64,000 bases of DNA. It comes from Escherichia phage vB_EcoM_P54. Shown here in pieces: positions 499 to 62,383 of this stretch (positions within the stretch are counted from its first letter, which is position 1; the number at the start of each line of letters is the position of its first letter). The position numbers and the translations under genes were made by a program. The DNA lies in sequence record PV390658.1; one strand, 5' to 3'. The notes under the pieces were generated by a model. That model worked only from the letters and a program-made list of their open reading frames with translations, did no database searches and was not told the DNA's origin.

Positions 499-1047
499 AT
501 GGAAAAAGATAACTTAAAAGATGTTGAAGGTAACTATCTAGTCCTTGACTGGAATGATATTCGGGAAGGACTCTCCGAAGAAAATTTTGACTGGTTCCAA
601 CAAATTATCTTTGCAGTACGGCATAACAGAGAAGTTGAAAATGGTAAAGAGCCACTTGAAGGAATCTTTGTAGAAAGGTCTTATCCGTTCTATGAAGACA
701 CTTTGCAGAAAGTTAAGATGTACTTTAGACAGAAGAACCGTAAAGTAGTCACTATGGTATCTCTTGGTGGACAGAGTATGTCTGTGATGGAAGATATCAA
801 TCCTAAGAGACCGAGTAAAGGTATCTGTATAAAAATCACAGGGCATGAAGAGTATATTTCAGTGGATGACTTTAGTTCATTCTGTAATGGTTCTGCTGTC
901 TTTAATGGGTTTCACTATGATATCCGAGTGTACCCAATCAAGGGAGATGATATCATGATGCAGGTATTCGATAACAACAATGGGTTTACTCATTTTTATC
1001 AGACAACCAAGTCATCACTGAAGACAGTTCTGGAAACACTGGTTTAA
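499..1047 (+). CDS. hypothetical protein (about 182 aa)
   Basis: ORF-track frame 454..1047 begins with TTG; first in-frame ATG is at 499; followed by hairpin terminator. Confidence 0.5.
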   Translation: MEKDNLKDVEGNYLVLDWNDIREGLSEENFDWFQQIIFAVRHNREVENGKEPLEGIFVERSYPFYEDTLQKVKMYFRQKNRKVVTMVSLGGQSMSVMEDINPKRPSKGICIKITGHEEYISVDDFSSFCNGSAVFNGFHYDIRVYPIKGDDIMMQVFDNNNGFTHFYQTTKSSLKTVLETLV

Positions 1048-1056
1048 AATATCTTA

Positions 1057-1085
1057 AGAGCCTCCTTAATTGGGGGCTTTTTAAT
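1057..1085 (+). terminator. rho-independent terminator (plus strand)
   Basis: AGAGCCTCC-loop-GGGGGCT hairpin followed by TTTTT; the same motif recurs inverted at 37758-37781. Confidence 0.55.
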
Positions 1086-2630
1086 TTTTATAAAATTTCA
1101 TCGGTTGTCCCAACCTCTGGGTCACCATCATATGTGAATAAAATATCTATCCTTCTTAACAACCTTCTTAAGCTTACTCTCTATATATAGTTATATAGTA
1201 CTATATAGTATCTTAGTATCTATCTAGTGGTCTTAATAGCCCTCTGTATAAACCTTCTAAATAGCCTTCTAACAAGCCTTCTTAACAACCTATACAATCA
1301 CCTTAACCATCCCTCTATACCCTCTTAGAAGCTCCTATACACCTCTTAATCTCTAGGTTACCTATGTTACCCTCTATAGGTGTTCACTAGGTATTACTAA
1401 GCCTCTATATAGACTGTTTTAACAAACTTAACAGGAATATCTTTACAGACCTTATCTCACAAGGTCTAACACGGTATTAACAAGGTATCTTATAAGCCTG
1501 TTTATGCCTGTATTTTTAAAAGACTGTCTAGGTAATTATTCAGAATTTTAAAATTTTTATAAAATAGGACTATCAAGTCATTTTTAGGGTCTTTGAAGGA
1601 ACTCAAAAATATCTGTAGAAGATGTATATCTGCTTGGTAGCCCTTAACATCCCTGTAACATCCCCTTTGCAGAATTTTAAAATATCATTAACAATCTCTT
1701 AACAACTCTCTCAAGCTCTTAACATCTCTTCAGAGGTCTTAACAGATTCTTAACAGAACTAACAAGGCTGTAATAAGTTCTTAACAGTCGATACATGGTC
1801 TTTATAGTCTCTTAACAGATGACTAACAAGAGCTAACAAGTTAATTTTTAAGAGTTATTTTGTTAAGATAATTAACAAGTTCCTAACAAGTGTTTAACCT
1901 TTTTAACAAGCTATTAACATGGTCACTATCTCTTTTCTTATCGTTCCCTTTCTTTCTTAGTGATTCTCTAAATAGCCCTCTTAAAAGCCCTCTATAGCTC
2001 CTTGTAAGCTCTTTTAAGCCTCTTCCTAGTAATTACACCCCAACTATGCAGACACCTTTTTATAAGGCTTTACAGGAGCTTTAAAGGCTATGTCAAAGAC
2101 TCTTACAAGGCTTTTACGTGGTATTAACAGAGATTTAACAAGGGGCTAACAAGTTGCTAACAAGTGCCTTAAAAGCATAACTATGTAGGGTTTGTTAAGA
2201 AATTGTTAAGAAAATGTTAAGGGGGCTAGCATTTACGTAACTTTATAGCTTCTTTTACGTAACTTTGAAGTGACTTTATAGCCCCTATAACATACTTTTT
2301 AGTTACTATCAAGTGGCTTGTTTAGTAGTTCACAAGATAGCTAACGAGATAATAAAGCTTATAACCTTATAAGATTCTTTTAAGCCTCTATAAAGCCCTG
2401 TAAAGAGTTTTTTAAGGTGAGTTAATGCAATCCCTTAAGTTAGGTTGATAAGGCTGTTATAGAGCTTTATAGAGCGTTTAAACGGTTGCCCTTCCCTTTC
2501 GGGTTATGGGCTTATATTTAAGTTGATTTGATAAAAGGTTATAGAGTAAGCTATAGAGTTATTGCTTTTAAGGTCTAGTAAGATTCTGGAAAGGTGAGGG
2601 AAAGGGATTGTATAAGGATTCAATAGACGT
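1086..2630. repeat. ORF-free repeat-rich region: more than 20 copies of YTAACARG-like octamers (both orientations) plus CTCTATA and TTTATAGC repeats
   Basis: No ORF of 60 aa or more on either strand; octamers cluster at 1269-1289, 1689-1921 and 2123-2222 (three inverted copies TTGTTAAG at 2191-2222); bounded by terminators at about 1057 and 2631. Confidence 0.7.
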
Positions 2631-2655
2631 AAAAAAGCCCCTTTAAATAGGGGCT
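2631..2655 (-). terminator. rho-independent terminator (minus strand)
   Basis: A-run 2631-2636 then AGCCCCT-TTAAAT-AGGGGCT hairpin, i.e. hairpin plus U-run on the minus transcript; a second hairpin GGGGCT-ATTT-AGCCCC at 2669-2684. Confidence 0.6.
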
Positions 2656-2694
2656 GTAAAAGGTATCTGGGGCTATTTAGCCCCGTTGCGTCGA

Positions 2695-2943
2695 TTAGTT
2701 GTAACCTTGTTTATTGTAGTACAGTGAGATAATCAAGTCACCCCAGTAATGATAGTGATGCTCGTCGTTTAATGCCTCTTTTACAGCGTCTTTCCAGAAG
2801 TCATCAGTAGGGTTATAATCTGGGATAACTTGCTTGATAACTGTCTTCACTAATGAAAAACACTCATCAGTTCCACCAATATCAAATTTAACGTCCAGAG
2901 TATAACAGCCATAAGCATTGACAGTTGCGCGGATAGTTGCCAT
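2695..2943 (-). CDS. hypothetical early protein (82 aa)
   Basis: ATG at 2943 directly downstream of a type A cassette with AGGAG SD. Confidence 0.6.
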   Translation of the reverse strand: MATIRATVNAYGCYTLDVKFDIGGTDECFSLVKTVIKQVIPDYNPTDDFWKDAVKEALNDEHHYHYWGDLIISLYYNKQGYN

Positions 2944-3037
2944 TTTTGAATCTCCTAGTTTAAGGACTTTACTTAGTGGGGAAGGTCATTCCCTCCCCGT
3001 TGATTGACAATTTACAGATTTTTGATTGTCTCGTCAA
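2944..3037 (-). promoter_or_regulatory. type A cassette: sigma70-like promoter, 5-prime-UTR hairpin, SD
   Basis: Minus strand: TTGACG (3032-3037), 17-nt spacer, TAAATT (3009-3014), then GGGGAGGGAATGACCTTCCCC hairpin and TAAACTAGGAGATTCAAAA-ATG. Confidence 0.55.
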
Positions 3038-3542
3038 TATCTTTTTCAATATCTTTTAAAGTTTTTTCTAAGTTCTTGATATTGAACGTTAAACCTTCAC
3101 CGAGAGTCTTAGAGTAACCGCTAGGGCGTAAATCATGCAGCTTGATTTCTTCCACTTCAAAGAGACTCACCGCCTCACCATTTACATCGTAGGCCATTGA
3201 TACAGTATTTTCAGGTGCGTTGTAAAACTTGTTTAAGGACTTGATAGAACGTTCATAAGCCATTTTATAGCTATTTAAAAGGTTTTTAACGTGGCTGTGA
3301 ACGTTTTTACACTCATCTAAATAAAGACCTAAAAACATCGGGAGAAGTTCCGCGACAGCTTGCATAAAGTGAGAGACTACAACGGTTGCAACATTACGAC
3401 GATGAACGTAATAAGCCCCGTTTTCTGATTTGGTAATGGTTGCAAAGTGTACCCCATTACAACGAAATTCATAGGTATCTTTAACAGGCTTAGACATTAC
3501 ATTATTTGAACGAATATAGTTGATAGCTTTGAATTTGTTCAT
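3012..3542 (-). CDS. hypothetical early protein (about 177 aa)
   Basis: ORF-track start 3635 reads through the cassette (translates as KVLKLGDSKM); start moved to ATG at 3542 abutting the cassette SD. Confidence 0.55.
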   Translation of the reverse strand: MNKFKAINYIRSNNVMSKPVKDTYEFRCNGVHFATITKSENGAYYVHRRNVATVVVSHFMQAVAELLPMFLGLYLDECKNVHSHVKNLLNSYKMAYERSIKSLNKFYNAPENTVSMAYDVNGEAVSLFEVEEIKLHDLRPSGYSKTLGEGLTFNIKNLEKTLKDIEKDIDETIKNL

Positions 3543-3635
3543 TTTAGAATCTCCTAGTTTAAGGACTTTACTTAGTAGGGAGGTTATTGCCTCCCCGTTG
3601 ATGAGTAATTTACTTGTTTTGATATCTGATTGCAA
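3543..3635 (-). promoter_or_regulatory. type A cassette
   Basis: TTGCAA (3630-3635), 17-nt spacer, TAAATT (3607-3612), conserved hairpin and SD. Confidence 0.5.
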
Positions 3636-3764
3636 GCAATTTTTTAAGTCTATCTATAAAGAATCTTTTAAGTTAATCCCTTTTAGATAAACCCCCTCGA
3701 ACAAAGTTACCAATGTCAAGAGGGATTGTCAACATCTTTTTAAAAGTTTTTTGTAAGTTATTGA

Positions 3765-4106
3765 TTAACTGATGAATATTTTTTCAGGTTTTACATAGCT
3801 GATACGCTGTCTTTTTAGCAGGTCATCCCAGATTAACGCGGCGATATGGGAGTAACCGGATTCACGTAAAAGTTTCATTGTTTTACTTCTCGTTTCAAAA
3901 CGGCTTACATAGTGCTCACTATTCAGCGTCGTTTTATTCCCTTCGTTGTCTACATGGATAATCTGCATCACTTGAAAGGGGCTTACATCCTCACCTTTAT
4001 TCCACTGCTCAAAGTATTTTAGGCACTGCATAGGTGACATCTTATCGCTTACTTGAGTTGACCAAGATGCGCCAGCTTTATCGGTAATTACAGTTACATA
4101 AGCCAT
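3765..4106 (-). CDS. hypothetical early protein (113 aa)
   Basis: ATG at 4106 abutting a type A cassette. Confidence 0.6.
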   Translation of the reverse strand: MAYVTVITDKAGASWSTQVSDKMSPMQCLKYFEQWNKGEDVSPFQVMQIIHVDNEGNKTTLNSEHYVSRFETRSKTMKLLRESGYSHIAALIWDDLLKRQRISYVKPEKIFIS

Positions 4107-4200
4107 TTTAGAATCTCCTAGTTTAAGGACTTTATTTAGTGGGGAAGGTCATTCCCTCCCCGTTGATTGACAATTTACAGACTTTTATCAGGCTTGTCTA
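4107..4200 (-). promoter_or_regulatory. type A cassette
   Basis: TAGACA (4195-4200), 17-nt spacer, TAAATT (4172-4177), GGGGAGGG-AATGA-CCTTCCCC hairpin and SD. Confidence 0.5.
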
Positions 4201-4431
4201 GTCTTTTTCAATGATAATTTCATATTGACCATCGACACTGTCAAAATAGACGCCGTCTTCGTCTTCTGTCTTAAAGTAGCATTGAATATCATCACTGGCG
4301 GGATAGTCTTGTCTTGCTATCTGGCAAACTTGAATAGCATTTTCTTTACTCCCTGTAAACTCCTCAAGCCCTTTAAAATCACATGAATGACCATTACAAA
4401 TAGAAAGGATAAGATAAACGGTTGTAAGCAT
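4198..4431 (-). CDS. hypothetical early protein (77 aa), hydrophobic N-terminus
   Basis: ORF with ATG at 4431; N-terminal MLTTVYLILSICNG looks like a signal or anchor segment. Confidence 0.5.
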   Translation of the reverse strand: MLTTVYLILSICNGHSCDFKGLEEFTGSKENAIQVCQIARQDYPASDDIQCYFKTEDEDGVYFDSVDGQYEIIIEKD

Positions 4432-4494
4432 GATTTAAGCCCTTTAAATGGCCCTGTATGGGCCTTAAGTTGGAAGTTGGTGTCTTTGTACTGA

Positions 4495-5058
4495 TTAACC
4501 TAAAAAGTCTTTTAAATTGCGTTCTGTGATGTTTGCCGTGATTTTATCCAGCAAGTCACAAAACACGGAACTATCACCGCTATTCTGTACAATTTTCGCC
4601 ATACTTAACAAATCATCGTCAACATAGCCTAAATTGCGGTTAGTTGCATCTGGTACAAAGAAAGGTGCATACATCGCACTAAATTTCGTCGAGTGAAGGC
4701 CAATAATCCAACCTTTATCAAAGTGTCCGGTAAAGCTGGCGATATTGCTCATGTTGTCACAAGAATAATCATCCTCTAGCTCTTCCTCTGGGATATCCAT
4801 CTCAATGACAATTACGTCCTGCGTTTCCATTTGGAAAGCTGCCGTAATAAGCCCAGATTCTAAAGCGTTTTGAATGCAGCGTTCACGAATGTAAGAATCT
4901 TCCTCATCTTCCAGACATTCCGTTTTGATAATCTTGTTCATTGGGTAAACGTAGAAACAATCATCCATGTATGAGCAGTTCCAGATTCCTTCCGGCTTGT
5001 CGCCACCATTCAGCAGGTTTACAAAGTTTTTGAGGGTAGTTCCGTGATAGCATTTCAT
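4495..5058 (-). CDS. early protein (187 aa), candidate PARP/diphtheria-toxin-like ADP-ribosyltransferase
   Basis: N-terminus MKCYHGTTLKNFVNLLNGG matches the HG[ST]-x3-N-h-x2-hL NAD-binding motif of H-Y-E class transferases; Tyr cluster CFYVY and acidic stretch VIVIEMDIPEEE downstream; motif-level only. Confidence 0.3.
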   Translation of the reverse strand: MKCYHGTTLKNFVNLLNGGDKPEGIWNCSYMDDCFYVYPMNKIIKTECLEDEEDSYIRERCIQNALESGLITAAFQMETQDVIVIEMDIPEEELEDDYSCDNMSNIASFTGHFDKGWIIGLHSTKFSAMYAPFFVPDATNRNLGYVDDDLLSMAKIVQNSGDSSVFCDLLDKITANITERNLKDFLG

Positions 5059-5138
5059 TTTTGAATCTCCAGTTTAGGATTTAGTGGTAAAGCTCTTTAT
5101 CTGGGGCTTACTTTATCGAACTATAAGCCCCTTGTAAA
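5059..5138 (-). promoter_or_regulatory. type B cassette: promoter embedded in a palindrome
   Basis: Minus strand: TTTACA (5133-5138), 17-nt spacer that is the 5-prime arm GGGGCTTA, TAAAGT (5110-5115) in the loop, 3-prime arm TAAGCCCC, then AGATAAAGAGCTTTACC and SD. Confidence 0.5.
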
Positions 5139-5143
5139 GTACT

Positions 5144-5392
5144 TTATTTAACTTTTTTTGAGAAAATTAGTTTAACTGCAACTGTAGGAATCTCGTCAGC
5201 GGTTGTAACCAGCATTACTTTTTGAGTGACCAACTTATAACCGTTCTTTGCAGCGTATGCGGTAAAACGGTTGACATTGTAACTATAAGTTTTTGGTGTG
5301 TTGTCTGGCATGTGGTAAAGAAAAGGTTTACCCAAGTTTTCTTCTTGTGTCAATAGTCGGCAGGTATCAGGGACATTGAAATAGTTCATCAT
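5144..5392 (-). CDS. hypothetical early protein (82 aa)
   Basis: ATG at 5392 abutting a type B cassette. Confidence 0.6.
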   Translation of the reverse strand: MMNYFNVPDTCRLLTQEENLGKPFLYHMPDNTPKTYSYNVNRFTAYAAKNGYKLVTQKVMLVTTADEIPTVAVKLIFSKKVK

Positions 5393-5472
5393 TTTTTAAT
5401 CTCCTAGTTTAAGGACTGTGTAAAGCTCTTTATCTGGGGCTTAAGATACCAACTTTTTAAGCCCCTTGTAAA
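5393..5472 (-). promoter_or_regulatory. type B cassette
   Basis: TTTACA (5467-5472), GGGGCTTAA...TTAAGCCCC palindrome with TATCTT in the loop, SD. Confidence 0.45.
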
Positions 5473-5484
5473 GTACTTTATTAC

Positions 5485-5682
5485 TTAATTTTTGACAACT
5501 TTTAAAACTGCAAGATAACCTAAGCAATAAGAATCACCGAAGAGAGTTCTACCCATGAAAGAATCCTCTTTGATATCCTTTGCAGTGACAGTTTTTTCTA
5601 CGCCGTGGGAAAGGACTACATCACCAACTTTGATATCTTTGATGTGTGTTGTTTCAATGGTTAAGCCGTTAATAATAGCCAT
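5485..5682 (-). CDS. hypothetical early protein (65 aa)
   Basis: ATG at 5682 abutting a type A cassette. Confidence 0.55.
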   Translation of the reverse strand: MAIINGLTIETTHIKDIKVGDVVLSHGVEKTVTAKDIKEDSFMGRTLFGDSYCLGYLAVLKVVKN

Positions 5683-5776
5683 TTTAGAATCTCCTAGTTT
5701 AAGGACTTTACTTAGTGGGGAAGGTCATTCCCTCCCCGTTGATTAGTAATTTAATCTATCTAAAAATCAGTGTCAA
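5683..5776 (-). promoter_or_regulatory. type A cassette
   Basis: TTGACA (5771-5776), 17-nt spacer, TAAATT (5748-5753), hairpin and SD. Confidence 0.6.
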
Positions 5777-5783
5777 CATCTTT

Positions 5784-6188
5784 TTAAAGTTCTGCGTAGA
5801 TTGCATCACAGACATCACGGAAATCATGATTTGTTAAGTTACGTTGTAACCAAGTGGCAAAGAAATCAGCGATTGCAAAATTAGCGTCATACTCGACGGA
5901 TAGCCACACTTTAACAGCAAATCGGAACATCTTTAAATCCAGCTCTTTATTCATTACCTTTGATTTGCCTAACATGTCGGCCATCTCATGTTGTGCACCG
6001 TCTAGCGTGATACCGGCTGCAACGTCAGCCAATGAGTTTTTTACGCTTTCAACGTCTAAGATAACACTTTGAATCTTCCCAATAATGTTTTGCAGTGTTT
6101 CATCCGGTGCTGCTGATGTGATAACATTAATCCGGTTAACGGTCAAACGTGCTTTTAAGATAGATAACTCACGATTATTAATAGCCAT
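5784..6188 (-). CDS. hypothetical early protein (134 aa)
   Basis: ATG at 6188 abutting a type B cassette. Confidence 0.6.
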   Translation of the reverse strand: MAINNRELSILKARLTVNRINVITSAAPDETLQNIIGKIQSVILDVESVKNSLADVAAGITLDGAQHEMADMLGKSKVMNKELDLKMFRFAVKVWLSVEYDANFAIADFFATWLQRNLTNHDFRDVCDAIYAEL

Positions 6189-6268
6189 TTTTGAATCTCC
6201 AATTTAGGATTTAGTGGTAAAGCTCTTTATCTGGGGCTTACTGTACAGACTTATAAGCCCCTTGTAAA
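6189..6268 (-). promoter_or_regulatory. type B cassette
   Basis: TTTACA (6263-6268), 17-nt spacer, TACAGT in the loop of the GGGGCTTA/TAAGCCCC palindrome. Confidence 0.45.
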
Positions 6269-6273
6269 GTACT

Positions 6274-6546
6274 TTATGCTAAATGCAGCTTTTTGCCTTT
6301 TACTATGATGTAACTTGATGCGCTATTGCCGCATACATCTTGATAAATTCTACGCAAACGGCCTTCGTAGTATACTTTCCAGCTAGTTGGAATCTTTTTC
6401 CCGTATCCGGTAGCAGTTTTTTGGAATCCTGCAAGTTGCCAATCCAAAATGTGCTGTTCAGCTTGTAAATCCTCGAAGTGCATTACACCGTTCACATAGT
6501 GGCGTAGGGTTACGTTTAAGGTGCGACCGTTGTTAGTAGTGTACAT
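6274..6546 (-). CDS. hypothetical early protein (about 90 aa)
   Basis: ORF-track start 6588 is a read-through of cassette sequence (KVLKLGDSKM); ATG at 6546 with AGGAG SD. Confidence 0.5.
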   Translation of the reverse strand: MYTTNNGRTLNVTLRHYVNGVMHFEDLQAEQHILDWQLAGFQKTATGYGKKIPTSWKVYYEGRLRRIYQDVCGNSASSYIIVKGKKLHLA

Positions 6547-6571
6547 TTTTGAATCTCCTAGTTTAAGGACT

Positions 6572-6730
6572 TTATTTTGACAGTTCACTAATTAAGACAT
6601 CAAAGATTATATCATTATCTGCTACAGTTGCAACACCAGTGATATAATCAATTTCTAAGATAACAACAACTTTCGTACATAAACCGTCATCTATATCATT
6701 CCAGACAACTTTATCACCTGCACAAAACAT
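6572..6730 (-). CDS. small hypothetical protein (52 aa, MFCAGDKVVWNDIDDG...)
   Basis: Not in the ORF track (under 60 aa); ATG at 6730 sits exactly at the conserved position after a complete type A cassette. Confidence 0.45.
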   Translation of the reverse strand: MFCAGDKVVWNDIDDGLCTKVVVILEIDYITGVATVADNDIIFDVLISELSK

Positions 6731-6825
6731 TTTTAGAATCTCCTAGTTTAAGGACTTTATTTAGTGGGGAAGGTCATCCCCTCCCCGTTGATGTGTAATT
6801 TAACCTATCTAAAAATCAGTGTCAA
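6731..6825 (-). promoter_or_regulatory. type A cassette
   Basis: TTGACA (6820-6825), 17-nt spacer, TAAATT (6797-6802), hairpin and SD. Confidence 0.6.
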
Positions 6826-7154
6826 ACACTTTGTTTCCGTTTGCTCAATTCTTGAACAATTACAGCGTGATAGTCTTTCAAGTCACTGATGTTTAAAGCA
6901 TTTATCAGAGAATTATAATCATCAACTAACTGGAAATCATCTTTGAAGATGTCACTTATCTGATAGGTTTTCGCTTTATATCTGAAGCTCATCTCTAGCC
7001 GCTTTATTTGCTCATCACTTAAACGCCCTAGAAAGCTCTCTACAAGGTTATTGCTAACTTGCTGTGTGATTGCCTTATTTGCTAGATTATAGGCTTTATA
7101 TGCCTTATATAGCGCGAAAATGGCAATGATTGCAGTGATACCAGTCATTAACAT
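6822..7154 (-). CDS. hypothetical membrane-anchored protein (110 aa)
   Basis: N-terminal hydrophobic helix MLMTGITAIIAIFALY; start overlaps the upstream stop (ATGTTAATGA). Confidence 0.55.
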   Translation of the reverse strand: MLMTGITAIIAIFALYKAYKAYNLANKAITQQVSNNLVESFLGRLSDEQIKRLEMSFRYKAKTYQISDIFKDDFQLVDDYNSLINALNISDLKDYHAVIVQELSKRKQSV

Positions 7155-7444
7155 GGTGTTTCCTCTTTACGTGATACTTTGCCATTTACAGTTATCTCAT
7201 AGGATTCTAATAAATCGCTTTTAGACTTTACAGGACTTTTAAAAGTATCATCATAAACATTAATTTGCAATACAGGCTTTTTATACTCCCTGCAACTATT
7301 CCATAAGCAAATCACTACACGACGGCCTTTTATTTTGCCGTGTAACCATTCCATAACATCATGACTATTCCTTGATGTCTCTATAAAATCAATTTTGTTG
7401 AGTAATTTGCTAAGGTTTTCTCTAACTTTATTTGATAATTTCAT
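7148..7444 (-). CDS. hypothetical early protein (98 aa)
   Basis: ATG at 7444 abutting a type B cassette. Confidence 0.55.
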   Translation of the reverse strand: MKLSNKVRENLSKLLNKIDFIETSRNSHDVMEWLHGKIKGRRVVICLWNSCREYKKPVLQINVYDDTFKSPVKSKSDLLESYEITVNGKVSRKEETPC

Positions 7445-7527
7445 TTTAGAATCTCCTAGTTTAAGGGCTTTATTTGATAAATCTCTCTATCTGGGGCTAT
7501 CATATCCGCTTGTTAGCCCCGTGTAAA
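7445..7527 (-). promoter_or_regulatory. type B cassette
   Basis: TTTACA (7522-7527), 17-nt spacer, TATGAT (5/6 match) in the loop of the GGGGCT/AGCCCC palindrome. Confidence 0.5.
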
Positions 7528-7536
7528 GAAATCTAT

Positions 7537-8049
7537 TTAGTTCTTAAAGATATTCATCACTGAATCTTTCAACGATTCCAAACGTTCTAATACTTCAGTT
7601 TCTGCGTCTGAATTGTTCACCTCTTCTTTTAGTCTATCCTCTAAATCATCGCCGTCACGATAGCACCAATCGAAAGCATAACCAAGATAAAAACTTTCTA
7701 AAACCGTGTTACCGTTTGCATCCACAACTTTCGCGGCAAGGTTGTACTCTGAAGCCTCTAAATCTCTTTCTAGTTCTTTTTGTAAGCTTGCGTAAGCCTC
7801 TTTTGATGGATTTTCCCGGCCTTGTTTTGCATAGTCACTTGAAAGCTGTTTAAGGCTGTAATGCAAAGGGATTGCATATTTAAAATCATTATGCTGACAG
7901 TTAGGATTTTTAACAGTCACACCGCCTTGATGGTCGTTTGTAAACTCCCAATTATCGAGATTATGGCTTGCTTCGTAGAAATTTACCGCTTCGTAGATGA
8001 TGGAAAATTTTTCTTTTACAACTTCAAAGGTAGCGTCTACAGTTTTCAT
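7537..8049 (-). CDS. hypothetical early protein (170 aa)
   Basis: ATG at 8049 abutting a type B cassette. Confidence 0.6.
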   Translation of the reverse strand: MKTVDATFEVVKEKFSIIYEAVNFYEASHNLDNWEFTNDHQGGVTVKNPNCQHNDFKYAIPLHYSLKQLSSDYAKQGRENPSKEAYASLQKELERDLEASEYNLAAKVVDANGNTVLESFYLGYAFDWCYRDGDDLEDRLKEEVNNSDAETEVLERLESLKDSVMNIFKN

Positions 8050-49163: not shown

Positions 49164-50063
49164 ATGTCACAAGCTGATTTGAGTTACAAAAATATCCTGA
49201 ACCATGTTTTATCCGTTGGTGAACTGCGTACTACACGAACTGGAGATGTTATCTCTGCATTTGCTCCACCACAGTTTCGTTTTGATATGAGAACTGGTTT
49301 CCCACTCTTAACATCTAAACAGGTGTTTACAAGGCAAGTTATTGGGGAAGCTTTATGGTTCATGAATGGTGAGAACAGGCTTGGTGAACTCCGTTATCGC
49401 ACTTGGGGTGAAAATGATGGAGAACGCTGGACTATCTGGTCAGATGATTTTAAACGCTGGTTAAGCTCTAACTATTCTTCTGAACAAGATTGGTTAGAAG
49501 ATGCAGGCGGAAGAATCTATGGAGTTCAGTGGAGAAACTTTGAAGGTCATAATGGTTGTGTTGTAGACCAGTTAGAAACCTTAGTAACGAAGATGAAGGG
49601 TGATATTACAGACCGCTACATGCTTGTTAATGCTTGGAATGCAGCAGATATTGCAGCTAACTCAATGGCTTTAGCACCTTGTCATGTTCTGTTTCAGGTT
49701 TATATCACTAATGAGGGTGAAGTTGACTTGCAATGGTATCAGCGTTCTGTAGACACCTTTTTAGGACTTCCGTTTAACATTGCATCTTATGGTTTTATTC
49801 TGGAAGTTCTTTGTAAGATGACTGGATACACTCCACGGTACTTGATAGGTGTCTTTGGAGATACTCAGATTTATCAGAACCATATGAAGCAGGTTTATGA
49901 ACTGATGAACAATGAAGAGTTTCATGCACCGACTTTTGAGATTGGTGTCCCACTTAACACTTTAAGTGACTTAAAACATCTCACTGCAAGTGATTTTATC
50001 GGTGGTATTAATAATTACCAACATGCAGGAAAGATTGAAGCACCTTTGTCAGTAGGTAAATAA
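49164..50063 (+). CDS. thyA: thymidylate synthase
   Basis: ALAPCHVLFQVY active-site Cys motif, RTGTG-like RTGD, FLGLPFNIASY, GDTQIYQNH; near-collinear with E. coli ThyA. Confidence 0.92.
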   Translation: MSQADLSYKNILNHVLSVGELRTTRTGDVISAFAPPQFRFDMRTGFPLLTSKQVFTRQVIGEALWFMNGENRLGELRYRTWGENDGERWTIWSDDFKRWLSSNYSSEQDWLEDAGGRIYGVQWRNFEGHNGCVVDQLETLVTKMKGDITDRYMLVNAWNAADIAANSMALAPCHVLFQVYITNEGEVDLQWYQRSVDTFLGLPFNIASYGFILEVLCKMTGYTPRYLIGVFGDTQIYQNHMKQVYELMNNEEFHAPTFEIGVPLNTLSDLKHLTASDFIGGINNYQHAGKIEAPLSVGK

Positions 50064-50065
50064 AA

Positions 50066-50098
50066 CAAAAAAGGCTCCCGTAAAAAGGAGCCTTAAAC
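50066..50098. terminator. bidirectional terminator between convergent units
   Basis: AAGGCTCC-CGTAAAA-AGGAGCCTT hairpin flanked by an A-run and a T-rich run; convergent genes end at 50063 and 50100. Confidence 0.6.
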
Positions 50099-50099
50099 T

Positions 50100-50471
50100 T
50101 TACTTTTCAGTATTCTTTGTGTTCTTTTCAGTAATAGCTTGGAGGGCTGATACTGATTGAGCCAGATTGTTCACACTATCAGAGAATTTATCAAGAGTCT
50201 TAGTAAGTTTTGCGTTCTCACCCTTAACATTCTCTAACTGGACTTTCTGGTTCTCCATCCCTAGCTGAAGCAGCCTCATATCAGACTGTAAATCACGAAT
50301 AGCTGAATAATTACTTTTGGAATAATTATCTAACTGCTGTAACTTTGTTGTGATAGACACTTCTTGCTTACCATCCGAGACTTGCATGGTGGTATACATC
50401 CCAATAACACTAAAAATACCAACTACAATTGCACCAATATTATTTTTAAAAGCTTCCTCTAGCCACTTCAT
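50100..50471 (-). CDS. membrane-anchored coiled-coil protein (123 aa)
   Basis: N-terminal transmembrane helix IGAIVVGIFSVIGMY then heptad-rich region. Confidence 0.5.
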   Translation of the reverse strand: MKWLEEAFKNNIGAIVVGIFSVIGMYTTMQVSDGKQEVSITTKLQQLDNYSKSNYSAIRDLQSDMRLLQLGMENQKVQLENVKGENAKLTKTLDKFSDSVNNLAQSVSALQAITEKNTKNTEK

Positions 50472-50665
50472 TTATTCTCCCCCTTAAAAGCTTTTTCTAA
50501 GTTATCTACGAACTCATCATCAATAGGTGTGTCTGTTTTACTCGCAAGGTATCTTGCAAGCCTAAAGAACACTTTCTCAATCATGTATTCACTTAGAAGG
50601 GATAAAATGAGTTTCCAGAAGAAGCTACCTAGATTTTTTAGAAGAATTGCTAGGATTGTAGGCAT
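50468..50665 (-). CDS. small membrane protein (65 aa), holin-like topology
   Basis: Hydrophobic N-terminus and charged C-terminus; just downstream of the tail fiber genes. Confidence 0.4.
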   Translation of the reverse strand: MPTILAILLKNLGSFFWKLILSLLSEYMIEKVFFRLARYLASKTDTPIDDEFVDNLEKAFKGENK

Positions 50666-50743: not shown

Positions 50744-53131
50744 TTAAGCAGTTCTTACCCAAGCCATTAACTTATAGAACTGGTTAGTAACACTAAATGC
50801 TGAACCAGAACCTGTACTACCAGTGTTACCACTAACTGTGTGGCTGTGAGCACCAATACCTACAGAGTGGGAATGGTCACCAGCACCGCTTGTAGTACCA
50901 GACCATGTGTGTGTATGGTTACCAGTTGTGTTAGTGTTAGGGAACTTGTTATCTCTTCTATCAAGCCAGTCAAGCGTTCTAGGGAGGCTGTTACCAACTG
51001 TTGTATATCCGTACAAAGCATCACCACCATTAACCAATAGCAGACCTAAGTGGTGAGCGTGGTTACCAGCAGCACTTGTTGTACCACTTACAGAGTGAGT
51101 ATGACCACCAGTACTATTAGTGCCCTTCGTACCATAATCAAAAGATGAAGTGGTAGCAGAGAAACTGTGAGTGTGTGATGGTAAGTTACCAACAGCTAAC
51201 GTCACAGAATCTGAACCACCTGTTGTAGCAACATCTGAACCGTTTGCTGCTGCGATTCTGATAGTTCTACCAACACCATTGTTCAGGTACGTCCAAGTTA
51301 GACCAGGAAGTGCTGTATTAGGGTCAACATTACTGTTAAACCACGTTACAATACCTACTGGATAGATTTTATTAAGGTCTGTAGAGTCACTAATTGCTGT
51401 TGCAATTTTCTGGTCAGTTTCTGCTTTAGTGTATGCACCAATCTCTGAAGGGGTTGGTCTCTGAGCTTCGGTGTAAACCTTAGACCATACATCCTCAAAA
51501 CCAAGTGCATCTCTGGCTGTTCTGTACCACATCCCACCATTTTTGTACCTAAACTTTAATTGTGCAGATGGTGTAGAGGCTTTCGTATTACAAAACAGGT
51601 TTAAGACTAAGAGTTCTGCCCCACCATCACTTGTTGATTCAGTGTAGATTCCTGAAGGTTGGTTCCAAGCTACACCACCTTCAGTCTCTTTTACCAGACC
51701 TCTGGATGCTGACCAGAAATACTTCGAATCAGTTTCTGATTTACCGTAGTATCTTGCATCAATGTTAGCCCAATCAGAGGGTTGAACTTGACCATTGATT
51801 TTCACTGTTTTATTTAGAAAAAAGTCATCTTGCATAAAAATAGTGGTCCCAGCTTTATCATTGTGGATAATGAGTTTAGATGGGTTTTCTACCTCGCCAT
51901 TCCCGATGTACCATCTTCTCACATTATCAGCGTTATAACCAGCAAAGTATAGTGCATTATCCTGAACAGTGTTTCTTAGCTGTAACGATAGGTCATCTTG
52001 GAGAATAACTTGTGTAGACCTGAAAATGTTCATGTCACTGAGTTTAGCAAGATTACTCAAAGTAGCTGCTGGAATGTATCTAGAGTCAATGTTAGTCCAA
52101 TCAGAAGGTTGAACTTGACCAGTGATTCTCACAGTCTTAGTAGCACTAATCACATCTGACAAAGAGATGGTTGTGCTTGTGCTGTAGTTGTGCAGATTAA
52201 CTACAGAGTCAGAAGTATCAGTCCCTAAGTAGAATTTGCTTGTACCATCAGCCTTCACTCCAAGTAGGTATAGTCCGGTTGCATTAGAGGCATTCTTAAT
52301 AACTAACGCAGCATTATTTCTGGTAATTTTGAACTCACCTACAAAATTATTAATACCACTAAAGGTGTTATCACCAGCTAGCTGTGCAAATCTCTGATTA
52401 GCTACTGTCTGAGTAAAGTATCTAGCATCTAAGTTAGAGAAGTCAGAAGGTTGAACTTGACCCATGACTCTTAGTGTCTTGTTAAATGACGCTGTTGCGT
52501 CAAGGGTTAACATTGAGCCAGTGGCATGATTGTACAGATAAACATTAGTGTTGTTTGCATTTCCCTGTCCAACATACCACGTTTGCTGGTTATTAGCATC
52601 TCTACCCTGAATATATGAAGCTCCTGCATTCGTTGCTTTCTTAAGGGTTAACTGCTCACCATCAGTTACAATTGCTTGCCTAATGTTGAAGTTATTTGTT
52701 ACAGCCAGCCTTGCATATCTTGCATCATTCTCTTCATTAGTTCTCATCCCAAGTTCATTAGGGCTTGGTTTATTCAGAGTATGATAAACAGTTGCCGACC
52801 TTGAAGCATCTGCAATAGTCAGTTTAAGGCCATTTGCGTTGATTTTAAAAGTCTTTAAAACATCCCCAATAGTAACCTCAGAAGAGCCTGTTGGGTTAAA
52901 GACTACCTTACCACCATAAAGTAACTTAACAATCCCTAAATCACCCGTCATGGTACTACCAGCAATCTGAACAAACCTTTCAAGTTTAAAAGATGCTAAG
53001 AAGTCTTGATAGGTCATTCGACGGTCTTCATCACCCAGCATTTCAGGTCTCTTTTTAACTCTGACATGAAGAAGGTCATCTGAACGGATTGTGTCGATTG
53101 AGTTTAATTCACTCAACTTGTAATCTGCCAT
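50744..53131 (-). CDS. long tail fiber protein (795 aa)
   Basis: Three internal repeats GQVQPSD(F/W)xN(L/I)D(A/S)RY; C-terminal Gly/Ser/Thr/His-rich region with GHTHS/GNHAHH/GDHSHS His-x-His boxes. Confidence 0.75.
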
Positions 53132-53145
53132 TATAAATTTTCCTC

Positions 53146-53168
53146 TTAAAAGGGGCTATAAAGCCCCT
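53146..53168 (-). terminator. hairpin between the two tail fiber genes
   Basis: Minus strand TTTACA then GGGGCTTTATAGCCCC then UUUU. Confidence 0.45.
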
Positions 53169-53177
53169 GTAAAGAAA

Positions 53178-54365
53178 TTAAGCTGTTCTCTGCCATACAT
53201 ACAGTACGAAGGATGGCTGTTCAATGTTGAAAGCTTGTCCACCACCAACACTGTTCGTGTTTCCACTATGCGTATGCTCAGAAGAAGAAACTGTCACAGT
53301 ACCATTGTGCGTATGTGAACCAATACCAACTGTGTGACTGTGAGCACCAATACCCACCGTATGGTTGTGGTTACCAGTTGTATTAGTGGTAACGCTAAAA
53401 GAGTGGGTGTGTGCACCAGCGACTTCACAGACAACATCTGCTGAGTACCATGATTGGTCATTCCTTGAAGACCAGACCATTGCAGGTCTTTCCGATAGAC
53501 CACCACCCGATTCATAGGTCAATCTGTGGTTGTGAGCACCAGCAGCACTTGTTGACCCACTACCAACGTGATTGTGGTTACCAGTTGTGTTAGTAGTCTT
53601 TGTTCCATAGTCAAAAGAGTTGGTAGTCTTAGTCCCATAATCAAAAGCTGAAATTGAAACAGTTGCATTATGAGTATGACCACCACCACTAAGAGATACA
53701 GAGTGTGAGTGTTGAGGCATGTTATTAACTGACAAAGTGACAGTTGAAGCACCAAATACAGAACCTGCTGGCCTTGTATCAGAGTCATAACCAACCAACG
53801 CCCTACCTTTTGAAACTAACTCCCAAGTACCTCCACAAATTAAGTATGTAGAAGGGTTTGCAGAGTTCATAGAAAGATGGATAGTACCTACTGGATAAGA
53901 AGCCTGAACAGCCTTGTACAAGTTATTTACTGCTCTTGCTGTAGCATACTTATCTGCATCTTCATTATAAAGGTTAGATGTTGTCCAGTTCTGAACATTA
54001 CTTAAACCAACCTGTGCCTTAGTTGTATTGTGTGGGTTACTCTTGTCCTTGATATGTTGCTGGACAAGGTTATTAACCTCTTCTGAAGACATAATCTGTA
54101 GATTTGCTCTTGCCTCAGCTACATTAACAATATCTGATAAGTTATTTGCAGCAACTAACTGAAGAGCATTAATAACATTATCTAAACCAATTTGTGTTTT
54201 AGTAACACCATGAGGGTTATTTTTTAGGCTTGCGTGTGGAGCAAGTAATTGCTCAAGAGTACACCTCTTATCCTCAATACCCTGCTTAAGATGGAAGATA
54301 TCACTAAGGTCAATTGGTAAGGCTGCTTGAGGCAAGGCACTAATTTGAATTTCACCTACTGCCAT
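53178..54365 (-). CDS. tail fiber protein (395 aa), paralogous C-terminal domain
   Basis: C-terminal His-x-His boxes (QHSHSV, GGHTHN, GNHNHV, GAHTHS, GAHSHT, GSHTHN) and ending WQRTA like the 795-aa fiber (WVRTA). Confidence 0.7.
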   Translation of the reverse strand: MAVGEIQISALPQAALPIDLSDIFHLKQGIEDKRCTLEQLLAPHASLKNNPHGVTKTQIGLDNVINALQLVAANNLSDIVNVAEARANLQIMSSEEVNNLVQQHIKDKSNPHNTTKAQVGLSNVQNWTTSNLYNEDADKYATARAVNNLYKAVQASYPVGTIHLSMNSANPSTYLICGGTWELVSKGRALVGYDSDTRPAGSVFGASTVTLSVNNMPQHSHSVSLSGGGHTHNATVSISAFDYGTKTTNSFDYGTKTTNTTGNHNHVGSGSTSAAGAHNHRLTYESGGGLSERPAMVWSSRNDQSWYSADVVCEVAGAHTHSFSVTTNTTGNHNHTVGIGAHSHTVGIGSHTHNGTVTVSSSEHTHSGNTNSVGGGQAFNIEQPSFVLYVWQRTA

Positions 54366-54367
54366 TA

Positions 54368-62383
<8,016 letters not shown>

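Follow-up and report, generated by a model that had tools for sequence, protein, structure and literature searches.

Two adjacent minus-strand genes in a 64,000-nucleotide stretch of Escherichia phage vB_EcoM_P54 (PV390658.1; hereafter the window) encode the short and long tail fibre pair of a Felixounavirus, a Felix O1-like myophage (Table 1). Each gene, SF (short tail fibre) and LF (long tail fibre), is an open reading frame occupying exactly the interval first proposed for it. SF matches PHROG 2097 ("tail fiber protein") over its full length (residues 1–394 covered, E = 1.4e-137), and LF matches PHROG 4277 (also "tail fiber protein") over residues 1–795 (1280 bits). The region matches 261 phage records, for the most part from Felixounavirus. 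LMP25, LMP33 and LMP34 are the top relatives across the two genes (91% nucleotide identity over 94% of the length), and the nearest counterpart of SF is the tail fibre of Shigella phage Z31 (99% amino acid identity).

The surrounding gene order is that of annotated Felixounavirus records, running wedge 2, wedge 1, platform, short fibre and long fibre. The sizes of the two wedge proteins (489 and 285 aa) and the order gp23–gp27 agree with phage Bas63 (PMC12609058), and the upstream platform and wedge genes match PHROG 4141 and 4017. The gene directly upstream of SF is assigned as the long-fibre platform (Bas63 gp25) by synteny only. SF corresponds to Bas63 STF gp26, VpaE1 gp74 and Felix O1 ORF76, and LF to Bas63 LTF gp27, VpaE1 gp75 and Felix O1 ORF77; the two sets of orthologues are distinct throughout the Ounavirinae. 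Downstream of LF lie reading frames of 65 aa (PHROG 402) and 123 aa (PHROG 4038, termed "holin" in some records). Neither the SF–LF gap nor the sequence immediately beyond LF contains a terminator, and promoter-like matches between and after the fibre genes were at or below shuffle expectation. A "cos site" annotated under the LF gene in KhF phages proved to be a 10-bp pattern match within coding sequence and was set aside as irrelevant.

Table 1. Fibre genes, their domains and the neighbouring baseplate genes in the window
Feature	Window coordinates	Strand	Description
LF gene (long tail fibre)	50744..53131	-	795 aa
LF N-terminal region, aa 1–136	52724..53131	-	Mean identity 0.80–0.94 to 33 relatives
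LF three tandem repeat units, aa 137–461	51749..52723	-	PF20744 in three copies
LF gp37_C/Mu gpS-like domain, aa ~477–584	51380..51703	-	PF12604, 54.9 bits (cut-off 22.5)
LF collar, aa ~585–648	51188..51379	-	Alignment to SF and T4 gp37 collars
LF needle-head-needle	50747..51187	-	Ascending HxH at 653, 677, 691; head ~697–736; descending HxH at 739, 753, 762; AWVRTA end
LF head cassette common to a T4-like phage	50835..51154	-	FDYGTK/HxH coding sequence on one side, GIGAHxHTV on the other
SF gene (short tail fibre)	53178..54365	-	395 aa
SF N-terminal region, aa 1–142	53940..54365	-	Conserved genus-wide, mean identity 0.90–0.98 to 34 relatives
SF collar, aa ~143–215	53721..53939	-	PF21939; T4 gp10 and 2XGF matches
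SF ascending needle strand, aa ~216–283	53517..53720	-	Four HxH (219, 230, 264, 278); FDYGTKTTN motif duplicated
SF head (tip), aa ~284–316	53418..53516	-	Hypervariable; aligns with T4 gp37 segment between HxH sets
SF descending needle and C-terminus, aa ~317–395	53181..53417	-	Five HxH (319, 333, 342, 351, 364); VWQRTA end
Gene directly upstream of SF	54368..54670	-	100 aa; putative long-fibre platform
Wedge 1 gene	54670–55527		285 aa; precedes the platform-position gene
Wedge 2 gene	55530–56999		489 aa; precedes the wedge 1 gene

The N-terminal parts of the two proteins show no significant similarity by BLASTP. In SF this region contains the motif NPHxxTKxQxGLxNV twice, at residues 50 and 110; by analogy with the description of Bas63 (PMC12609058), residues 1–142 probably provide baseplate attachment and short helix-and-turn linkers. 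The N-terminal region of LF closes with a degenerate 18-residue linker (residues 122–139). The LF shaft that follows contains three copies of GQVQPSD(F/W)xN(L/I)D(A/S)RY, at residues 224–238, 338–352 and 447–461 (window positions 52418–52462, 52076–52120 and 51749–51793). These are the ends of three units of about 105 residues (137–238, 239–352 and 353–461), delimited with a self-HMM and pairwise BLASTP; the units, the second taken as 249–352, are 34–36% identical to one another (BLASTP E = 2e-19 to 3e-22). Pfam gp37_trimer (PF20744) matches LF in three tandem stretches (E = 1.5e-52; 176 bits against a cut-off of 21.7), and a DNA repeat family, D2 (67 nt, 76–84%), underlies the protein repeats. 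Residues 158–226 weakly match T7 gp17 (4A0T). The gp37_C domain beyond the repeats also closes with an 18-residue linker, and LF residues 477–580 are homologous to residues 330–430 of the phage Mu tail fibre S (PDB 8JU3; E = 8e-20). LF differs from Mu S in that its gp37_C domain lies inside the protein, ahead of a T4-type tip. No homologues of the Mu chaperone are reported for the genome of a related phage, Sf14 (PMC11821841).

Across relatives, the bodies of the shaft modules are variable and the linkers are conserved. The modules of the window LF differ in their nearest relative, and the switches fall near linkers. LF as a whole is closest to that of LMP25 (84% amino acid identity), its tip is identical to that of Z31, and repeat 2 is 98% identical to TH10. 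LF combines known modules in a new way.

The C-terminal ends of both proteins are rich in HxH boxes, six in LF and nine in SF, divided between ascending and descending strands as 3 + 3 and 4 + 5, respectively. Residue shuffles of the C-terminal segments (n = 5000) gave averages of only ~1.0 (LF) and ~1.6 (SF) boxes, with maxima of 6 and 7, so that the observed counts are roughly six-fold above expectation. Gly, Ser and Thr make up 0.44 and 0.41 of the two tips against 0.25 and 0.20 of the remainder of each protein, and His makes up 8–10%. The proteins terminate in LMAWVRTA (LF) and LYVWQRTA (SF). BLASTP with compositional adjustment aligned LF 590–795 with SF 157–395 at 35% identity and 25% gaps (E = 2e-23). 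In sequence searches, LF 646–775 (E = 4e-19) and SF 146–367 (E = 5e-26) each matched the structure of the T4 gp37 tip (2XGF). An alignment of T4, LF and SF contains six invariant HxH pairs in common register, three before and three after a variable segment (T4 residues H883/885, 915/917, 929/931, 966/968, 980/982 and 989/991), and the motifs FDYGTK and GIGAHSHTV are likewise invariant in register. The SF collar matches Pfam Gp10_C (PF21939; E = 1.3e-18; 68.7 bits against a cut-off of 27), the T4 gp10 structures 2FKK and 5HX2, and the collar of 2XGF. The LF collar scores 23.7 bits, below the Gp10_C cut-off of 27, yet aligns to the SF and T4 gp37 collars nonetheless. Predicted as a monomer from its sequence alone, the SF tip (residues 145–395) gave an AlphaFold2 model with a mean pLDDT of 32, too low to be informative.

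Judged by sequence, both C-termini are homologous to the receptor-binding tip of T4 gp37, with its collar, needle and head. By the same homology, the HxH boxes of LF and SF would bind metal, the tips would form trimers and the heads would contact the receptor. Much of this layout had been anticipated in the original prediction, which described two fibre genes with Gly/Ser/Thr-rich, HxH-rich ends, C-terminal tails that are alike (WVRTA and WQRTA), N-termini that differ and a three-fold repeat in the longer protein. These features are all borne out, every box quoted (GHTHS, GNHAHH, GDHSHS, GAHSHT and GSHTHN) is present, and the C-terminal alignment reveals homology beyond low complexity with conserved His spacing.

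Folding of T4 gp37 needs gp38. A tblastn search with T4 and BYEP01 gp38 detected no homologue in the 64-kb window (best E = 0.8), so LF and SF must either fold in another way or rely on a factor encoded elsewhere than in the window. A gp38-type neighbour gene is a mark of the T4 system, not of the tip fold.

Comparison of 40 related loci, with relatives drawn from a phage collection and from IMG/VR, placed the variation in the head, which separates the ascending from the descending HxH set; the HxH scaffold is not the variable part. The variable segments span residues ~676–750 of LF, with mean identity to relatives of 0.22–0.48, and ~276–325 of SF (0.31–0.41); the flanks have values of 0.86–0.95. 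Around 45 loci yielded 58 distinct head cassettes. The SF proteins of relatives fall into several cassette families with 6 to 10 HxH boxes, and the window SF head type recurs in Z31, LMP25 and L014–L017. The head varies between phages and is therefore probably the carrier of specificity; SF residues ~284–316 are the probable receptor-contacting part. The original suggestion that the shared domains may carry host specificity must accordingly be refined: the shared HxH needle is a conserved scaffold, and it is the variable head between the HxH sets that probably carries specificity.

We propose that the N-terminal attachment region and the shaft are particular to each fibre, and that both fibres end in a T4 gp37-type receptor-binding tip. 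The tip chain would leave the collar along the needle, reach the small head and then return. As homology suggests, HxH boxes from both the outgoing and the returning strand of each of three chains would pile up along the needle axis and coordinate metal ions there, which predicts six metal sites in LF and nine in SF. The HxH scaffold and collar are conserved, whereas the head between the HxH sets is variable and would be the specificity-carrying cassette. The LF shaft consists of the three clear ~105-residue β-helix modules and further, more divergent ones, with conserved linkers (19 protein letters) between them. The stretches encoding FDYGTK/HxH, GIGAHxHTV and the shaft linkers may serve as exchange joints. 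Cassettes are exchanged from phage to phage, between SF and LF within a genome, and even with T4-like phages.

Recombination between SF and LF is well evidenced in relatives, and the crossovers may lie at these joints. The same head cassette occurs in both fibres of Felix O1, Si3, BPS17L1, L026, L027 and L033, and the SF and LF genes of BPS17L1 share an exact match of 189 nt. SF–LF fusion genes are present in Meda and 35FD; the Meda junction was searched with 1301 nt, since a 651-nt query was too short to tell fusions from normal LF 3′ ends. A 32-residue duplication occurs in 35FD. Both fusions might instead have arisen when a repeat was collapsed during assembly. In the window, the two tips are 36% identical in protein sequence; at the nucleotide level their top HSP reaches 75% over 81 nt, and no exact match is longer than 20 nt. 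With an identical stretch of at most 20 nt, exchange between the window's own SF and LF is not recent. The prediction that the tips recombine between the two genes thus finds its support in relatives (shared cassettes, the long exact match and fusions), but not as a recent event in this genome. Over 320 nt, the window LF head cassette is 91% identical (~98% in amino acids) to gp37 of the Tequatrovirus BYEP01, whose flanks are T4-like, and VpaE1 and REP10 have LF heads that closely resemble the one of T4. The literature searched, including two Felixounavirus comparative papers, contained no report of paralog exchange or gene conversion between the fibre genes, and no mention of SF–LF fusion genes. 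We consider the evidence evenly poised on whether the head is a free-moving cassette that is copied at His-box joints from one fibre gene of a genome to the other and is also traded there with T4-like phages. If it is, a phage could switch among one specificity on two fibres (Felix O1 and BPS17L1), two specificities on two fibres (the window) and a single fused fibre (Meda and 35FD).

We regard it as highly probable that the locus encodes a Felixounavirus fibre pair with T4 gp37-type tips, a conserved HxH scaffold, variable exchangeable heads and a modular LF shaft. The resemblance between the tips could in principle be purely compositional, two Gly/Ser/Thr/His-rich low-complexity ends with no common fold; 41–44% G + S + T, 8–10% His and a gapped alignment of just 35% identity would fit this. 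However, both tips match the T4 gp37 tip at E values of 1e-19 to 1e-26, the HxH columns, FDYGTK and GIGAHSHTV hold an invariant register, the BLASTP similarity persists after compositional adjustment, and shuffles do not reproduce the HxH counts. These results refute the compositional account, to which we assign practically no weight. It is scarcely more credible, and still very improbable, that a tandem duplication recently produced SF and LF in this genome, with ongoing gene conversion keeping their tips alike. The genes are adjacent on the same strand with tips and tails in common, and conversion between the two is evident in relatives, but the low identity of the tips and the brevity of the nucleotide matches between them are difficult to reconcile with such an origin. 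Furthermore, the LF tip has more in common with T4 gp37 (45%) than with the SF tip (36%), no sequence relationship links the N-termini, and SF and LF persist as separate orthologues throughout the subfamily.

A more serious alternative, although one we consider unlikely, is that one fibre alone sets host range, with SF acting like T4 gp12 in secondary, irreversible attachment to a conserved element of the LPS core, so that its tip is no specificity cassette. The SF of Bas63 is the shorter fibre and is attached to a different wedge protein (PMC12609058), the N-terminal and collar regions of SF are highly conserved, and the collar itself is gp10/gp12-like. Against this, the SF head varies as much as the LF head (0.31–0.41) and occurs in several cassette families with 6 to 10 HxH boxes, Felix O1-type Salmonella phages bear the same head on SF and LF, and a single SF-based fibre seems to suffice for Meda and 35FD.

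A fibre pair with T4-type HxH tips is an already known architecture, published for VpaE1 in 2015 (PMC4690856) and by cryo-EM in 2025 for Sf14 (PMC11821841) and Bas63 (PMC12609058); the window finding is thus correct but ordinary. In Bas63 both fibres end in a collar, an HxH needle and a head tip, and HxH metal binding in the T4 tip is summarized in the same report (PMC12609058). The fibres of Bas63, VpaE1 and Felix O1 resemble those of the window in gene order after the wedge and platform genes, in size and in a T4 gp37-like collar, needle and head with HxH boxes on both fibres. Felixounavirus LF proteins likewise have β-helix repeat modules with helix-and-turn linkers, and variability is concentrated in tips and shaft modules. 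The window differs from Bas63 in having nine HxH boxes in SF (seven are reported for the Bas63 STF) and HxHH (GNHAHH) in LF where Bas63 has HHxH. The T4 gp37 tip (2XGF), like the lambda Stf tip, consists of a collar, a needle of six strands along which HxH boxes are stacked, and a head at which the outgoing strands turn into the returning ones. It shares with the window tips the six in-register boxes, FDYGTK, GIGAHxHTV and a (V/I)R(T/L)A tail. Unlike the four-protein long fibre of T4, each window tip sits on a one-protein fibre; the HxH count is six or nine rather than seven, and the heads are unlike T4's own.

Work on T-even distal fibre genes by Tetart et al. in 1996 and 1998 reportedly showed that variable adhesin segments lie between conserved stretches encoding GxHxH, at which crossovers take place. 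The SF–LF fusions of Meda and 35FD, like the 32-residue duplication of 35FD, resemble the products described there. In contrast to the T-even case, the partners here include paralogous fibre genes in one genome and phages of a different family.

The window result itself merely confirms published architecture. The range of bacteria to which a Felix O1-type phage can attach is set by its fibre tips, and such phages serve in diagnostics and biocontrol of Salmonella and E. coli. The practical value lies in the mapped cassette boundaries, FDYGTK/HxH upstream, GIGAHxHTV downstream and the shaft linkers (15 protein letters). Natural chimeras show that heads are movable between fibres and between phage families, so these boundaries are sensible junctions for host-range engineering.

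The window is a segment of a Felix O1-like myophage genome. Its fiber region has matches in 261 phage records, the majority from Felixounavirus of Escherichia, Salmonella and Shigella; phages LMP25/33/34 are closest (91% nucleotide identity across 94% of the region). The short (SF) and long (LF) tail fiber genes are separated by 46 nt, and the two small genes following LF belong to the same transcription unit. The succession of fiber, small and holin-like genes recalls gp37-gp38-t of T4, and the PHROG 4038 protein is labeled 'holin' in several records. A hairpin likely terminates this late operon and is possibly bidirectional. GC skew is positive between ~38–40 kb and 50 kb and negative in the rest of the window, in agreement with a plus-strand (early/metabolic) gene block between minus-strand blocks.

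Coordinates of fiber-related features (window positions unless a residue range or another phage is named)
Feature	Position	Strand	Remarks
Genes upstream of fiber pair			489, 285, 100 aa; sizes and order as Bas63 wedge 2, wedge 1, long-fiber platform
SF gene	53178–54365	minus	395 aa
SF motif NPHxxTKxQxGLxNV	~54174–54218; ~53994–54038		aa 50–64; 110–124
LF gene	50744–53131	minus	795 aa
LF repeat units	aa 137–238; 249–352; 353–461
LF GQVQPSD motifs	aa 224–238; 338–352; 447–461
Divergent LF linker motifs	aa 122–139; 559–576
LF stretch shared with BYEP01	50835–51154		LF nt 1978–2297
Gene after LF	50468–50665	minus	65 aa, hydrophobic N-terminus, PHROG 402
Next gene	50100–50471	minus	123 aa, N-terminal membrane segment and coiled coil, PHROG 4038
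Hairpin	50071–50094		strong, then T-run; between late operon and thymidylate synthase
Thymidylate synthase gene	49164–50063	plus	convergent with minus-strand late operon
BPS17L1 (locus L044)	SF 3902–5068; LF 5120–7642
Felix O1 (locus L045)	SF 992–2158; LF 2209–4557
Meda fusion gene (locus L009)	3501–4607		Salmonella phage, MH586731
vB_Si_35FD fusion gene (locus L043)	2402–3604		MZ327261
Split LF, Si3 (loci L007/L029)	4718–6079; 6126–7061
Split LF, locus L025	5723–7348; 7314–8093
BYEP01 gp37 (locus L046)	660–3869
KhF2 'cos site' (locus L047)	1940–1949		KT184314

The original prediction described two fibers with differing N-terminal parts, a shared C-terminal domain rich in His-x-His (HxH) boxes and in Gly/Ser/Thr, near-identical ends and a threefold repeat in LF; every listed feature was found in the window. 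BLASTP aligned LF 590–795 with SF 157–395 (35% identity, E = 2e-23) and detected no relationship between the N-terminal parts. The tips are 41–44% Gly+Ser+Thr and carry 6 (LF) and 9 (SF) HxH boxes, compared with ~1.0 and ~1.6 after shuffling of the same segments, and the proteins end in AWVRTA (LF) and VWQRTA (SF). Each of the three GQVQPSD motifs closes a complete repeat unit. These units are 34–36% identical (E = 2e-19 to 3e-22) and correspond to three Pfam gp37_trimer stretches (E = 1.5e-52); LF has two further, more divergent linker motifs. A different motif occurs twice in the N-terminal part of SF; tblastn with this region finds fiber-like proteins from distantly related phages, among them SPbeta YomR and proteins of Klebsiella and Serratia jumbo phages.

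Each C-terminus has a match in the crystal structure 2XGF, the receptor-binding tip of T4 gp37 (E = 4e-19 for LF, 5e-26 for SF). When T4, LF and SF are aligned, six HxH pairs (T4 His 883/885, 915/917, 929/931, 966/968, 980/982 and 989/991) are invariant and in register, as are FDYGTK and GIGAHxHTV. The His spacing is therefore conserved, and mere low-complexity similarity between the tips is ruled out. Of the two fibers, only SF shares the seventh T4 box, and it has two more besides. The T4 chain ascends the needle, forms the head and then returns, and its His pairs bind iron (PMC12609058). By homology, the LF boxes would lie three and three around a head at ~697–736, and the SF boxes four and five around one at ~284–316. 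The SF collar has a further match in T4 gp10 (and in Pfam Gp10_C), and LF aa 477–580 is homologous to Mu fiber protein S (8JU3, E = 8e-20; Pfam gp37_C).

This architecture is already known. Both Felix O1-like fiber proteins were reported as C-terminally homologous to the T4 gp37 adhesin in 2015 (VpaE1; PMC4690856), and the 2025 Sf14 structure has two fibers with a T4 gp37-like tip (PMC11821841). Cryo-EM of Bas63, also in 2025, revealed the collar, HxH needle and head on short and long fibers alike, with 7 and 6 di-histidine motifs, respectively, five β-helix repeat domains joined by helix-and-turn linkers in the long fiber, and variable tips and repeats (PMC12609058). The SF of phage Z31 is 99% identical to that of the window.

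Variability was assessed across 12 GenBank and 29 IMG/VR loci, each compared with the window. SF is conserved at aa 1–275 and 326–395 and variable only at aa 276–325, the head (mean identity 0.31–0.41). In LF, the N-terminus, first two repeat-linker motifs, collar and needle flanks are better conserved (0.63–0.95), and the module bodies (0.25–0.57) and head (0.22–0.48) are variable. The sampled loci contain 58 distinct head cassettes. SF has 6–10 HxH boxes; LF usually has 4 or 6, with 7 at one locus. Some short fibers have only two ascending HxH boxes but three to four tandem FDYGTK-type repeats (L006, L032, L035, L036 and L038, heid/Bas63-like; L010, L037, L040 and L042, Mooglevirus), so the ascending strand varies in repeat number as well as the head in sequence. 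LF is split into two ORFs at the Si3 loci and L025 by a stop codon or frameshift within the shaft, reflecting either a broken fiber or a sequencing error; the Bas63 study also flagged the Si3 protein as incomplete (PMC12609058). The 'cos site' annotated within the long fiber coding sequence of KhF phages is no more than a match to a 10-bp pattern, apparently an annotation artifact.

The window LF is a mosaic. Repeat 1 resembles LMP25, VpaE1 and locus L028 (96–100% at aa 151–200, 90–100% at aa 201–250), repeat 2 has its sole close match in phage TH10 (98%), and the tip is identical to that of Z31; the changes of nearest relative sit near linkers. Sharing extends to T4-like phages. The gp37 of BYEP01 (Tequatrovirus) is 91% identical in nucleotides (~98% in amino acids) to one LF stretch and T4-like on both flanks of it. 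A gp38-type assembly gene follows BYEP01 gp37; the 64-kb window contains no gp38 homolog. Almost the same head as in T4 gp37, GEHSHYIEAWNGTG...GGSNTNAAGNHSHTF, caps the LF of VpaE1 and REP10 (loci L003, L019 and L022, REP10 and VpaE1-like).

Recombination between the two genes had also been proposed. In the window, there is no sign of recent exchange: the longest exact SF–LF match is 20 nt, the tips are 36% identical (best nucleotide HSP 75% over 81 nt), the heads are unrelated, and T4 gp37 is nearer to the LF tip (45%) than SF is. The proposal holds in relatives. The cassette VGG(R/H)YGGDSIGGKxRVQxSGTxQxSS is present in both SF and LF of Si3, L026, L027, L033, BPS17L1 and Felix O1, and only in SF of NJ12; between genomes that are not near-duplicates, it is 78–95% identical. 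Within BPS17L1, SF and LF share 189 identical nt and are 99% identical over the 171-nt cassette; in Felix O1 they are 81% identical over 270 nt. Salmonella-type Felixounaviruses have the same head cassette on both fibers of a genome. In 2 of 231 records, Meda and vB_Si_35FD, a single fusion gene resembles SF to ~aa 315 and finishes with the LF-type terminus (LMAWVRTA), and ~2.4 kb of LF body is absent. In Meda the crossover is clean and lies within the cassette common to both genes; in 35FD, 32 aa are duplicated where the two parts join. Either unequal crossing-over really took place, or the assemblies collapsed across the repeat that SF and LF have in common.

Of all these points, only cassette sharing between the paralogs and the fusion genes of relatives did not turn up in the literature searched. 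The observation behind the original prediction is confirmed and its interpretation supported with one refinement, which concerns where specificity resides. Within the shared domains, originally suggested as its possible carriers, the HxH regions are the scaffold and probably also the crossover joints; the variability among relatives points to the head between the two HxH sets as the specificity cassette.
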